A stretch of DNA of 39,982 bases from Candidatus Iainarchaeum sp. (lineage in GTDB: Archaea; Iainarchaeota; Iainarchaeia; Iainarchaeales; GCA-2688035): the NCBI GenBank assembly GCA_017610175.1, contig JAFCCO010000015.1, positions 1 through 39,982 of the forward strand, read 5' to 3'. Shown here piece after piece: positions 1 to 6,905 of the stretch. The translations under genes were made by a program, and so were the position numbers. The notes beneath the pieces were generated by a model, which had not been told where the DNA came from, made no database searches, and worked only from the letters and a program-made list of their open reading frames with translations. How positions within the stretch are numbered: position 1 is the stretch's first letter; every line of letters begins with the position of its first letter.

Positions 1-531
1 CGCAAGAGGAGTGTTTAAAGCAGAAAAAAAGTCGGGCGAAGTGTTTGAATCATCAACTGTTGTTGAGGATAAAAAGGAACCAAACCAACTCCACTCATTC
101 ACATCATTGTTTGCAATATCAAGGTTTACATCCAAAGGAAAACTATTGTACAAAACATTCGAATCATACAAAGCAGGAGAGTAGTTTCCGTCGTGTGAAA
201 CAAAGTGCGCAGAATACTGAAAGAAACGGGTGGGGGAAAAGGCATTCAAATCCCAAACAGAACCAGCATTTGAGAACGGGACAGCAAAAACCGAGCCTGT
301 TTCACCGTCAGGTCCGGCAAAAACCTCACCAGCACACTCAGAGTCATCACAACCCCTCACCTGAAACAAAACATTAACATCTGCAGAATTGTCCACCGAA
401 TAAACCCCAAAAACATCGTGGATTGAATTGTACTGGGGAAGAACAATGCCAATGGCAAAAGCAAAAGCAAACTGAAAGCTAAGCAAAAGGCACACTGTTA
501 ACAGCAAAAAACCCTTTTTCAGCTTTCCCAT
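1..531 (-). CDS. Secreted/surface protein, 3'-partial (runs off the window start); absent from the ORF track
   Basis: Manual translation from ATG at 531 is open to base 1: MGKLKKGFLLLTVCLLLSFQFAFAFA (signal peptide) ...VNVLFQVRGCDDSECAGEVFAGPDG...FSPTRFFQYSAHF...SPALYDSNVLY...FPLDVNLDIANNDVNEWSWFGSF...DFFSALN. Confidence 0.85.
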   Translation of the reverse strand, partial: MGKLKKGFLLLTVCLLLSFQFAFAFAIGIVLPQYNSIHDVFGVYSVDNSADVNVLFQVRGCDDSECAGEVFAGPDGETGSVFAVPFSNAGSVWDLNAFSPTRFFQYSAHFVSHDGNYSPALYDSNVLYNSFPLDVNLDIANNDVNEWSWFGSFLSSTTVDDSNTSPDFFSALNTPLA

Positions 532-619
532 CTCATTTCCCCTTTCTCCTTTCTTTCTTCCCGGTAGTTTTCCCATTCCATTTTTCCTTTGACTTTTTTT
601 CCCTTTCCTTTTTTTTTCG

Positions 620-673
620 CTTCAAGATTCAAAATTCCAGATTACCAGATTCAAGACAGATTTTCAGATTCAA
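620..673 (-). repeat. Short tandem AATCT(G) repeats directly after the stop codon of the lectin-fold gene; candidate DGR cis element
   Basis: Minus strand reads TGAATCTGAAAATCTGTCTTGAATCTGGTAATCTGGAATTTTGAATCTTGAAG, five AATCT copies. Confidence 0.6.
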
Positions 674-783
674 GGCGCCGCGCAGCAGCGAAACCCGACG
701 CTGCAGGTCGCAAGGGCCGAATCGAAGCTCAAATAGGCACTGAACAAGCCCGCAATGCCCCCAATGCTCCAACCGCCGCCACG
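670..783 (-). other. Putative DGR variable repeat (VR)
   Basis: RGGGWSIGGIAGLFSAYLSFDSALATCSVGFRCC: fixed scaffold with NNY codons at positions where DGR templates carry AAY; 9 adenines in 111 nt, no codon ends in A; GC-rich 3' end CGCTGCTGCGCGGCGCC. Confidence 0.7.
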
Positions 784-1827
784 CAGAACAGCCCGATTCT
801 CCTTCGTTGAGCTTGTGTAAACCCCGTCGTTCCCATAATGCAAACTCTTTTCCCCGTTTCCCCACAGGGGAGGAGAAACATCGTCATTCGGATAATTCCA
901 GCCATTGTCAGCCGAGTCGGCGTTAACATCTACAACATCCGATGTCCAGTCGTAAACGTTTCCAATCAAATCAAAAACACCCTCTGCGGACACACAGTTT
1001 GAAGGGCTCTGGCTGTTGGTGCTTCCTGTATTGCACGCGGCCCCACCCCCCTGGGAATGACTTGGACAAGAATTTGTTGCGCCAACAACGCATGCGGCGT
1101 CTGTTACAGCGTCACTCAAACCGTAAACCTGTCCGTTGAGGTTTGCGGCAGCCATCCACTCTTCACTCGAGCACAAATGCTTTCCGGCAGCCGCACAGGC
1201 TGTTGCTGCATTTGTTTGTGAGATTGTTGTCCACGGTATTCTGCCGGCAACGCTTGCAGGAACCGGGCTTTCACCATAATGGGCTTCACTGCCTGCACTC
1301 CATTCAATGCTGTTGTCGCAGAAGGTTGCGTCAGAGTGGCTCGCCTCATACTTGTCAATGCAGAAGCCGCCAAGCTTTGGAATAAAAGCCATTCCTTCCG
1401 GGCAATTAAAATCCTTCAAGCCCCAAGAGATTGAGTTCCAGTCAACAACACTTCCGGCATCAAACACCCTGCTGTTATAATCACCCGAAGTGCTCCCCGC
1501 CGTCAATCCAACGAACCCGTTCCCGTCCAAAGAATTAAAATCAGTCCCAGAGTACGCGCCAGCATCAAACTCTGCCTCAGAATTCACATCCCAGTTAAAG
1601 TCAACATCAAAATTGGCTTCACCCACCAAATCCATTGAAACAGATGAAACGTTTGCATTCAAAGGAATGCTGAAAGAGCCGGCAGACCCCCCCGCCGCAA
1701 AGAAAGAAAAAGACTCACCGGACTCACCGCCGCCAAAAGTCGAAATTGTTGGCGCAAAAACAAGCAAACCAGCAAAAAGCAGGCAAGCAACAGCCACCAA
1801 CAAAAAAGGCTTCCAACGGCTTTGCAT
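670..1827 (-). CDS. Secreted or membrane-anchored protein with C-terminal FGE-sulfatase/C-type lectin (CLec) fold; likely DGR target
   Basis: N-terminal hydrophobic segment after MQSRWK (ATG 1827 preferred over 1881); FGE-type motifs CPEGM, FCIDKYEAS, A...C...GKHLCSSEEW, GVFDLIGNVYDW, AVLRGGGW, VGFRCC. Confidence 0.85.
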   Translation of the reverse strand: MQSRWKPFLLVAVACLLFAGLLVFAPTISTFGGGESGESFSFFAAGGSAGSFSIPLNANVSSVSMDLVGEANFDVDFNWDVNSEAEFDAGAYSGTDFNSLDGNGFVGLTAGSTSGDYNSRVFDAGSVVDWNSISWGLKDFNCPEGMAFIPKLGGFCIDKYEASHSDATFCDNSIEWSAGSEAHYGESPVPASVAGRIPWTTISQTNAATACAAAGKHLCSSEEWMAAANLNGQVYGLSDAVTDAACVVGATNSCPSHSQGGGAACNTGSTNSQSPSNCVSAEGVFDLIGNVYDWTSDVVDVNADSADNGWNYPNDDVSPPLWGNGEKSLHYGNDGVYTSSTKENRAVLRGGGWSIGGIAGLFSAYLSFDSALATCSVGFRCCAAP

Positions 1828-1970
1828 CCTGCCAAACAACTCAAACCCTTCACCAAACACGCCAAAACACAACCAAACCAATACGCGATTACCCTATCAA
1901 TACAATAACTCCCCCCCCTAAATAAACCTTTGCCCGCCCCTTGGGGGGGGGGGTTCCGGGAAAAGAGCGG

Positions 1971-2530: not shown

Positions 2531-2692
2531 CCATTGTTATTTTAAAGGTTTTCCATTGCCCTCCGCCCCAAAAAAATTAAAATCCCTGCATTGAATTACC
2601 CCTGCATTTGCCTGGCAAACGGCAAAAGGAAAGAATTAGTAAGGGCAGGGGCGAAGGCAAACCAATATTAATATTCCCGCACTAAACCCCTT

Positions 2693-3556
2693 ATGGAATA
2701 TACTGCAAACGATTCTCCCTCTAAAAACAAGGACGCAATCATCTCGCGCTACAGGCAGGAGCTTATTGTAGGGGGCTACAGCGCGCGCACAATCAAAATG
2801 TACCTTTTTTACCTGAAAGACTTTCTCGGCTCAACCCAAAAGCCGATGGATGAGGTTGTGCGCGAGGACATAATCGCATTCCTTGCAAAGAAAAAGGAGG
2901 AAAAGAACGCAAGCAACTCAACCATTTCACTAATTCACTCCTCCCTTAGGTTCTATTTCCACAACATCCTTGGTAAAAAAATTCTCGATGAAATAAAAAC
3001 CCCGCGCAAGGCAAAAAAACTACCTGTTACACTCACGCGGGACGAAATCAGGGACCTGATTAAGGCATCCAAGCCCAAGCGCAACCGCCTGATTGTTCAG
3101 TTTCTTTATTCCTCGGGAGCAAGGGTTAGCGAGTGTGTAAAGCTCAAAGTACCAGACCTCAATCTCAAAGAGAGAATTGCAATGGTGCGCGGCGGCAAGG
3201 GAAACAAGGACAGAGCCATCATTCTGTCCAAGGAGTGGATTAAGTATTTGAAGAAATATCTGGACCGCAAGAAGGTAAAATCCGAATTTGTCTTCAGCAA
3301 GAAAAACGGCAAAAAACTAAGCACTGATACTGTGCAACGGATTGTGAGAGAGGCTGCTGAAAAAGCGGGAATTCAAAAGCACATTACCCCCCACAGCCTG
3401 CGCCACTCATACGCAACCCATCTGCTGGAGGCCGGGGAAAATCTCAGAAAAATCCAGGAGCTGCTGGGCCACTCCAACCTAAACACCACCCAGATTTATA
3501 CCCATGTTTCAGTCAATGACCTTAAAAAAGTTGAAAGCCCGCTTGACAAGCTCTGA
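2693..3556 (+). CDS. xerA: XerA/XerD-type tyrosine recombinase
   Basis: SAM-like N-domain (YSARTIKMY), SGARVSE, GGKGNKDR, ITPHSLRHSYATHLLE, LLGHSNLNTTQIY with the full R-K-H-R-H-Y catalytic set. Confidence 0.92.
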   Translation: MEYTANDSPSKNKDAIISRYRQELIVGGYSARTIKMYLFYLKDFLGSTQKPMDEVVREDIIAFLAKKKEEKNASNSTISLIHSSLRFYFHNILGKKILDEIKTPRKAKKLPVTLTRDEIRDLIKASKPKRNRLIVQFLYSSGARVSECVKLKVPDLNLKERIAMVRGGKGNKDRAIILSKEWIKYLKKYLDRKKVKSEFVFSKKNGKKLSTDTVQRIVREAAEKAGIQKHITPHSLRHSYATHLLEAGENLRKIQELLGHSNLNTTQIYTHVSVNDLKKVESPLDKL

Positions 3557-3573
3557 CCCCGCAGTTCCACTAA

Positions 3574-3843
3574 TTAGCCTAATGTTTCCTGAAGGGCCTT
3601 AAGCTTTGCCACAATTTTGCGACCCTTTTGGGTGAGAACAATTGGTTTAACCCGCCCTGTTGATGAAACATCAATCAAACCAAATTCCTTAAACCCTGCT
3701 AAAACCTTAACCATATGGGGATAAGTGCAGTCCACTTCCTTTGCCAATTCAGAAGCATAGGTTGTTTCTGCATTATTAAATAAAGCTAACAGAACCTTTG
3801 CGGGTTTGTCCCTAAATAAAAAGTAAAAAAGCTCTTCCCCCAT
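3574..3843 (-). CDS. Winged helix-turn-helix regulator (MarR/ArsR-like)
   Basis: YASELAKEVDCTYPHMVKVL...FGLI...GRVKPIVLTQKG; ATG at 3843. Confidence 0.8.
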   Translation of the reverse strand: MGEELFYFLFRDKPAKVLLALFNNAETTYASELAKEVDCTYPHMVKVLAGFKEFGLIDVSSTGRVKPIVLTQKGRKIVAKLKALQETLG

Positions 3844-6368: not shown

Positions 6369-6905
6369 TTAAAGCGCCTTTTTAATTATCGTCTGCTCTG
6401 CCCGCAACGCCCCTAATTCGGTTTCTGTTTCTTTCAGGACTCGGGTATTATTCATCATTCCCATCACTTTTCCGCATTCTGGGCAGCGAAAACCGTATTC
6501 TGCGGCAATCTCAAAGGGCATTGGCCCGCAAGCAGCCCTGCATGAAAACCAGCCATAATTGGATTGCATCTGCTGTTTTGTTTCGAGTTTTTTCACATTC
6601 TCTTGAATTTCTTCAAGCAAAATTTCTGCAATCCTCTTTTTCTTAATGGCCCAAGTGTATGAATACCATCCGGTTTTGCTGTTCTTGCTTTTTTGGTAAC
6701 ATGCAACCCCCCTGTAATGCAGGCGGTTTAGAATTGTCCTCACTTCGGTTACTTTTAATTTCATTTTCTTTGCAAGTTCTTCGTCTGTAACATCTTCCCC
6801 CTTGCGTTCATAAATTTTTATTACCTTTAATGCGCCTTCTCCAGCCATTCGTGTAATTAGGTCTTGGGTAGACTGAAGGTTTATGATTTTTTTTGTTTTT
6901 GGCAT
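6369..6905 (-). CDS. tfe: Transcription factor E (TFIIE-alpha homologue)
   Basis: VTDEELAKKM..KVTEVRTILNRLH, GWYSYTW, Zn ribbon C..C...FRCPECG; ATG 6905 preferred. Confidence 0.93.
   Translation of the reverse strand: MPKTKKIINLQSTQDLITRMAGEGALKVIKIYERKGEDVTDEELAKKMKLKVTEVRTILNRLHYRGVACYQKSKNSKTGWYSYTWAIKKKRIAEILLEEIQENVKKLETKQQMQSNYGWFSCRAACGPMPFEIAAEYGFRCPECGKVMGMMNNTRVLKETETELGALRAEQTIIKKAL

Follow-up and report, generated by a model that had tools for sequence, protein, structure and literature searches.

In DGRs, an RT–Avd complex reverse-transcribes a template repeat (TR) and misincorporates bases opposite the template adenines, after which the cDNA replaces the variable repeat (VR). 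The outcome is that AAY (Asn) codons of the template become many codons, while the scaffold around them stays fixed. DGRs of DPANN archaea are established, as are FGE-type C-type-lectin (CLec)-fold targets and remote targets (PMC4372165, PMC5006420, PMC5758913, PMC8144416, PMC8867640). The present study concerns a target gene at one end of a 39,982-nucleotide stretch of archaeal DNA, referred to here as the window. The systems closest to it are the DPANN/Woesearchaeota-type archaeal DGRs, represented here by the related genomes G027, G165, and G028 and by 19 of 76 fetched loci, with which the window shares an orthologous target, the scaffold and length of the VR, its C-terminal position, a block of AATCTG repeats, and a neighboring gene, gene X. 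In contrast to the DGRs of these relatives, the window's locus is missing bAvd, TR, and RT, none of which was found elsewhere in the assembly, so that its VR has no template with which it can be compared.

Two better known systems share some of these traits. TvpA of Treponema denticola, like the window's target, has its VR at the C terminus of a C-type-lectin fold of the FGE subclass, and the targets of the T. denticola DGR are described as able to lie far from the RT and to be served in trans, each remote target matching a TR in the same genome (PMC5758913, PMC5006420); in contrast, neither a TR nor an RT was found in the window's genome, and its host is a small-genome archaeon. In the Mtd/DGR system of Bordetella phage BPP-1, the mechanistic paradigm, AAY codons for the ligand-binding site of a CLec fold are rewritten specifically at adenines, as they probably were in the window, and in both the nonvariant 3′ end of the VR encodes the last strand (PMC4372165). 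Unlike BPP-1, the window has no evident GC-rich IMH with a hairpin or cruciform 3′ of the VR, carrying AATCTG direct repeats instead, and its host is cellular rather than a phage. DGR variable-protein homologs in DPANN genomes with no recognizable DGR have a precedent in the AvpA-like Woesearchaeota proteins to which Handa et al. (2016, PMC5006420) assign the entry "no DGR." AvpA itself, unlike the window's target, has a divergent CLec fold and an internal VR, and the available text of that study reports neither cassette-loss synteny nor a VR analysis for the "no DGR" proteins.

As DGR surveys are described, targets are identified through their match to a TR (PMC5758913, PMC8144416), and VRs that have no template therefore escape them. 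Our literature search brought up no description of a VR that had been orphaned through loss of its cassette; the supplementary tables of the surveys may list such cases, and the term "orphan" in the available text of PMC4372165 refers to orphan genes and not to orphaned VRs. What the locus adds to these systems is a clean syntenic contrast and a candidate flank element.

Results

A Predicted FGE-Type Protein with a DGR-Type Repeat at Its C Terminus

The target ORF (Table 1) is intact, and its product is predicted to be secreted or anchored in the membrane and to have an FGE-sulfatase/C-type-lectin-fold domain at its C terminus, a profile search having placed Pfam FGE-sulfatase (PF03781) at residues 194–399 of 403 (E 7.2e-14). 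The true start is likely to be the ATG at 1827 (M19), which is preferred because homology to relatives starts there; the G027 ortholog matched the window by tblastn at 679–1827, with 59.8% identity over 383 aa (E 8.6e-145). A database search returned 189 homologs at E ≤ 1e-10, the nearest 66% identical, with source names that point to DPANN archaea, and the target's 90% protein cluster holds one further member, identical except for L in place of M at the start. Fold assignment was made from sequence: an AlphaFold2 model based on a 16-sequence alignment was poor (mean pLDDT 49.7, pTM 0.54, VR region below 50), and the sole solved-structure match in a PDB sequence search was SUMF2 (aa 211–315, E 6e-4). 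A true FGE (SUMF1/FGE) enzyme was also considered. No sulfatase (PF00884) in the target's own genome scored above the Pfam cutoff (best 14.8 bits against a cutoff of 25), so that no substrate is evident and a true formylglycine-generating role is unlikely. We propose that the target is a surface-exposed ligand-binding protein built on an FGE-type C-type-lectin fold.

Upstream of the target by about 800 nt lies a tyrosine recombinase gene (Phage_integrase 5.3e-50, with an N-terminal SAM-like domain), whose product could be the Xer-type enzyme that serves housekeeping or, alternatively, an integrase belonging to a mobile island that carries the target. The two small overlapping ORFs between target and recombinase have a toxin–antitoxin-like layout, and no significant Pfam match was obtained for either.

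Table 1. Coordinates of the features discussed, in the window and at the G027 locus
Feature	Position	Strand	Description
Gene X, 5′ part	1..576	minus	ORF cut by contig end; first ATG 576; large secreted surface-protein gene
Intergenic spacer	532..669	minus	138 nt, from target stop (672–670) to likely gene X start; slot that holds bAvd-TR-RT in G027
AATCTG block	624..670	minus	four direct repeats (670–665, 662–657, 651–646, 643–638) plus one AATCTT (629–624)
Variable repeat (VR)	673..795	minus	41 codons, R363 to P403; from codon counts and alignment with relatives' VRs and TRs
Target gene	670..1881	minus	longest ORF 403 aa, TTG start 1881; predicted FGE-sulfatase/C-type-lectin-fold domain C-terminal
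Small ORF	1971–2264	minus	97 aa
Small ORF	2261–2515	minus	84 aa
Tyrosine recombinase	2693–3556	plus	287 aa
G027 locus, target	ends 1812
G027 locus, Avd	1950–2324
G027 locus, TR	about 2369–2482
G027 locus, RT	2669–3676
G027 locus, gene X	from 3669

The target ORF ends in RAVLRGGGWSIGGIAGLFSAYLSFDSALATCSVGFRCCAAP, and the scaffold of its VR can be written RAV.RGG.W..G..AGLF...L.........GFRCC, with some 13–14 variable codons. A sequence-only reading of the window had described the last 37 sense codons (673–783) as poor in adenine, with none ending in A, and counting confirms this: the 111 nt hold 9 A, no codon (0/37) ends in A, and 27 of the 37 have C or T in third position. The 14 NNY codons named in that reading are all present. 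Such a composition is rare. Across all of the genome's stop-to-stop ORFs with 150 aa or more, taken in six frames and so including spurious ORFs, 402,931 in-frame 37-codon windows were examined, of which 1,155 (0.29%) had at most 9 A and 272 (0.07%) had, in addition, no third-position A; the corresponding figures among 1,479 C-terminal windows were five and two. The hydrophobic N terminus of the target gene is equally poor in A (3–8 A per 60 nt), and low adenine is thus not by itself diagnostic of a DGR. The conserved R-G-G-x-W...A-G-L-F...L...G-F-R-C-C scaffold with variable residues between its fixed positions, also noted in the sequence-only reading, proved to be real: the 16-sequence alignment shows no variation at R367, G368, G369, G378, F380, and L384 and hardly any at G396 and F397, while the residues between scaffold positions vary in every homolog.

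Orthologs in Related Genomes Are Paired with Template Repeats

A match to the target was found in five of 41 related genomes, one of the five being the window's own (G000). Contig 19 of G027 carries, in order, a 61%-identical ortholog, bAvd (125 aa), a TR, an RT (336 aa), and gene X, with profile matches of 9.6e-22 for the bAvd domain of the Avd and 1e-24 for RVT_1 in the RT. Gene X of G027, the start of which overlaps the end of the RT gene, encodes a secreted protein of 1,615–1,625 aa. The TR is a noncoding copy of the end of the target gene and reads RAVIRGGNWNNGSNAGLFYINLNNAPGNSNNNIGFRCC, and the pattern of the template repeats of G027 and G165 is RGGNWNNGSNAGLF..NLNN..NNNIGFRCC. The Asn-rich template that had been guessed from the window by back-mutating its NNY codons comes close to these actual TRs of relatives. 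The G027 VR differs from its own TR at 16 of the 28 adenines, against 1 of 86 nonadenine positions.

In G165 the cassette has the same order as in G027, Avd-TR-RT-gene X, and sits at a contig end. The G165 ortholog, which is 57% identical to the window's target, lies on another contig amid unrelated genes, and its differences from the G165 TR fall at 20 of the 29 adenines and at 0 of the 85 other sites; because it matches the TR at all non-A sites from a different contig, it is a remote target. G028 holds a TR and, at contig ends, several VRs, of which VRa departs from the TR at 8 of 28 adenine sites and 0 of 86 others. A further G028 VR (L025, contig C12) differs from that TR at 16 of 28 adenine sites and at 13 of 86 nonadenine sites, so that either this target is in decay or its template is a second, unseen one. 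On a Woesearchaeota contig (L047), two identical VRs (2900–2998 and 6650–6748) with identical 3′ flanks surround one cassette, as the result of either target duplication or an assembly repeat.

The window's target is therefore, at 57–61% identity, orthologous to targets that are paired with a TR under an adenine-only rule. The proposal that a DGR-type VR forms the C terminus of an FGE/CLec-fold protein in a DPANN-type archaeon is supported accordingly, the orthologs in G027 and G165 being demonstrable DGR targets.

Adenine Sites of Foreign Templates Are Preferentially Changed in the Window

The VR of the window was compared with the TRs of G027, G028, and G165 in a 129-nt frame by Fisher test. 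These TRs are foreign and the tested sites double as ligand-contact codons, where diversifying selection of any kind would speed up evolution, so that the following values support a DGR origin rather than prove it: against the G027 TR, 24 of 32 adenine sites differed but only 25 of 97 other sites (p 1.4e-6); against the G028 TR, 23 of 32 and 28 of 97 (p 2.4e-5); and against the G165 TR, 25 of 33 and 25 of 96 (p 7.5e-7). Outside the VR (aa 150–362 compared with the G027 ortholog), adenine sites (65/176) and other sites (140/445) served as a control and showed no such bias (p 0.22). At TR-adenine sites the window has G 11 times, A 7, T 7, and C 3; about one-quarter of these sites are still A, as expected from unbiased rewriting. 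Orthology to working targets is a stronger argument for a DGR origin than this test. On comparative sequence evidence, the C-terminal 41 codons appear to be a genuine DGR variable repeat.

The Cassette Slot between the Target and Gene X Is Empty

In G027 the target and gene X are separated by 1,856 nt that contain the Avd, TR, and RT, a cassette of about 1.7 kb. In the window the order is target, 138 nt, gene X, with bAvd-TR-RT absent between them, and no remnant of a TR, Avd, or RT was found in the spacer. A BLAST comparison of the window's first 1,000 nt with the G027 locus gave alignments in the gene bodies, between VR and TR, and over the ~40 nt directly following the stop codon, and nowhere else. 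Gene X itself is identified by a tblastn match of residues 25–194 of the G027 protein to positions 4–471 (45.9% identical, E 6.5e-34), with no other match in the assembly. Its start is likely to be the second ATG, at 531, judged from the signal-peptide-like N terminus that this ATG would give (MGKLKKGF...).

At 670 nt from the VR the contig breaks off within gene X, the remainder of which is absent from the assembly. Although many contigs of the bin overlap one another by 114 nt, the ends of the window's contig (C7) overlap no other contig end. With the neighbor of this contig not in the bin and the rest of gene X missing, the DNA beside the locus is unsampled. The end-to-end overlaps in the G000 bin are of exactly 114 nt (for example, C1/C6, C8/C34, C8/C15, C11/C21, C5/C17, and C21/C33), and C3 overlaps itself and is possibly circular; the bin could be scaffolded further.

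No Cassette Is Found in the Assembled Genome

The assembly to which the window belongs comprises 1,240,584 bases in 34 contigs and is 90.25% complete. Profile searches of it gave 0 matches at E ≤ 1 for RVT_1 and for bAvd (PF22296), and tblastn gave no match at E ≤ 1 for the G027 RT and only noise (E 0.32 and 0.79) for the G027 Avd. Adenine-tolerant scans for a TR in windows of 150, 120, and 60 nt found none, the best other match having 22 non-A mismatches in 120, and 36-nt windows allowing at most two non-A mismatches returned 0 nonself matches. A BLAST of positions 640–900 against the whole genome for a second copy yielded the region itself and chance matches of 14–20 nt, and no TR. Among short predicted proteins (30–220 aa), a search with residues 352–403 for a TR-encoded ORF gave one word-sharing candidate and none at E ≤ 0.001, a weak search in that TRs are often not called as genes. 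The earlier statement that the window contains no RT or TR is thus upheld, and the same holds for the assembled genome. RT, TR, and bAvd, which together would define a complete DGR, are missing from the assembly, which at 90.25% completeness does not imply their absence from the organism.

Distribution of the Cassette and Its Target

Across the order, an RT of the G027 type was found in 26 of 196 genomes, and in 0 of the 22 other genomes of the window's family. The VR scaffold was found in 12 of the 196, eight with an RT and four without one (G000, G013, G060, and G063). In G060 and G063 the VR-like sequence stands at a contig start, so that their cassettes may simply be unassembled; these two genomes show that bins can lose cassettes. 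G013 is the only other family member with the target gene and has no RT. Its copy looks decayed: the repeat is one residue shorter, the ORF runs past GFRCC, and there is no AATCTG block. The public label of the G013 contig (L042/L021, C141) is that of a bacterial candidate phylum, yet G013 falls in the same family grouping as the window's archaeal genome and its target gene is 62% identical to that of the window; the label or the bin may be wrong.

Among the 76 homologous loci fetched from public genome contigs, the 19 with an RT have it in the fetched flank, and one more has an Avd at the contig end. The closest 25 loci (L039–L063) divide into 16 with an RT, one with an Avd only, and eight with neither, four of these eight being cut by contig ends. 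An adjacent cassette is the rule in this group, and copies that have no cassette recur. Fifteen pattern matches in public metagenome contigs led to two loci. One holds a gene of the G027 type on a contig of 1.6 kb, the other a fragment with 60% identity, and neither is a closer relative or strain variant of the target.

Direct Repeats Flank the VR

The AATCTG block begins at the final base of the target's stop codon, and nowhere else in the 1.24-Mb genome, on either strand, do three or more AATCTG fall within 60 nt; no stable hairpin was found 3′ of the VR (z 0.74). When at least two AATCT[G/T] within 100 nt 3′ of a repeat were counted as a flank, one was present at 13 of the 18 VRs whose locus has an RT, 0 of 16 TRs, 0 of 39 VR-like sequences from bacterial/CPR paralog loci, and 0.57% of random background windows. 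Repeats of the form (G/T)AATCTG(G) lie just 3′ of the VRs at L040, L041, L045, L047, L048, L050–L052, L057, and L060, as well as at L020 (1813–1845), and the remote target of G165 has five copies of the motif. The block is absent (0/3) from the homologs in RT-less genomes with readable flanks (L042, L044, and L061).

On the template side, 11 of 16 TRs are followed within 45 nt by the reverse complement CAGATT, and AATCTG/CAGATT is the longest complementary match between VR flank and TR flank in 9 of 19 pairs. Since the loci are related to one another, the counts for the VR and TR flanks are not independent. The two-copy pattern AATCTGN{2,14}AATCTG occurs in 159 of the 196 genomes of the order and is therefore too unspecific to be cross-tabulated with RT presence. 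In another DGR clade of the order (L156 in G072 and L158 in G071), a different repeat stands 3′ of the VR, with units such as CTGGACCACTGG and GCTCCTGG, and CTGG-containing direct repeats may be a general feature of these archaeal targets. The AATCTG block, a 3′ VR flank specific to the window's clade, is a lead to a putative target-side cis element.

Discussion

The window and its genome display directly a DGR-type target, an empty slot beside it, and assembled DNA that contains no cassette. The reading we favor, with confidence slightly above even, is that the VR is a frozen, orphaned repeat left behind by cassette loss, a possibility that the sequence-only reading had not raised. In the ancestral state, the VR would have been written by a bAvd-TR-RT cassette lying between the target and gene X. 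This cassette would then have been deleted at the locus, or the gene would have been inherited without it, so that the VR would now be a snapshot of its last rewrite, changing only by ordinary mutation, while the protein would still serve as a binding protein of fixed specificity. Consistent with loss are the empty slot, the absence of a cassette from a 90%-complete bin, the 0 of 22 RTs in the family, and the decayed copy in G013. On this reading, the contrast with the relatives would reflect a deletion here rather than an insertion in them. Against loss stand the ~10% of the genome that is unassembled, the existence of a remote target in G165, the retention of four to five copies of the AATCTG block, and the intact ORF. 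The block, kept here and absent in all three readable RT-less homologs, fits either a recent loss or a target that is still served.

The latter, one of the two options offered in the sequence-only reading, would be the case if the VR were still rewritten in trans from a bAvd-TR-RT cassette in the unassembled or unbinned ~10% of the genome, farther out than gene X, or carried by a virus or plasmid, which we regard as possible but doubtful. G165 offers a model, with its ortholog on a different contig from the cassette and differences confined to adenine sites (20/29 against 0/85), and remote targets, FGE-sulfatase ones among them, are documented (PMC5758913). The four to five AATCTG/T repeats of the window resemble those of VRs accompanied by an RT (13/18), whereas the three readable RT-less homologs have none; moreover, the ORF is intact, and the bin lacks the contig's neighbor as well as most of gene X. 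Set against an active remote target are the failure to detect an RT, Avd, or TR in a 1.24-Mb assembly that is 90.25% complete, the lack of an RT in all 22 other family genomes, and the emptiness of the slot at the very place where both informative relatives keep the cassette. The search for a short TR-like ORF among proteins of 30–220 aa, which found none, points the same way weakly, TRs often being uncalled. A special case of such a remote source, suggested in the sequence-only reading, is a cassette just beyond base 1. That the contig stops 670 nt from the VR and that its continuation is absent from the assembly would accommodate it, but synteny disagrees: base 1 lies inside gene X, which in G027 is 1,615–1,625 aa long and comes after the RT, so that a cassette past base 1 would be kilobases away and in an order unlike that of both relatives. 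We consider this case very improbable.

It is likewise hardly credible that the repeat has nothing to do with a DGR, being part of an ordinary FGE/SUMF-type enzyme or lectin-like protein that is A-poor by chance or composition and whose variability among homologs reflects diversifying selection. The equally A-poor N terminus of the gene, the reliance of the adenine-site test on foreign TRs, and SUMF2 as the only solved-structure sequence match (E 6e-4) are compatible with such a protein. Its 57–61%-identical orthologs, though, are paired with TRs under strict adenine-only rules, and the scaffold, the position of the stop codon, and the 3′ AATCTG block are common to the window and those targets; in addition, no sulfatase scores above the Pfam cutoff, and the composition of the repeat recurs in only 0.07% of genome windows.

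The flank repeats invite a more speculative reading, which we think rather unlikely. Targets of this clade might be marked by (G/T)AATCTG(G) repeats and not by a hairpin, and these repeats might pair with a conserved, complementary CCAGAUU in the spacer just 3′ of the template RNA, or a protein might read both, so as to guide the cDNA. The window would then hold a multicopy landing pad with no resident cassette, which could be re-armed by an incoming DGR with a matching template. If so, the incoming DGR could arrive by virus, by transfer, or from a hidden copy, and in these reduced genomes the gain and loss of targets would be independent of the gain and loss of cassettes. The AATCTG flank is, at the least, a cheap and testable candidate for target recognition in archaeal DGRs, a process that is poorly understood.

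Orphaned repeat or not, the locus and its G027 counterpart form a syntenic before/after pair, target-bAvd-TR-RT-gene X and target-gene X. The locus suggests that a hypervariable surface protein can outlive its mutator in small-genome DPANN archaea. If the VR is frozen, the lineage gave up rapid receptor variation; if the VR is still being rewritten, its target is a remote one and the cassette was missed in binning. Both outcomes are relevant to the way these episymbiotic cells deal with their hosts and viruses.
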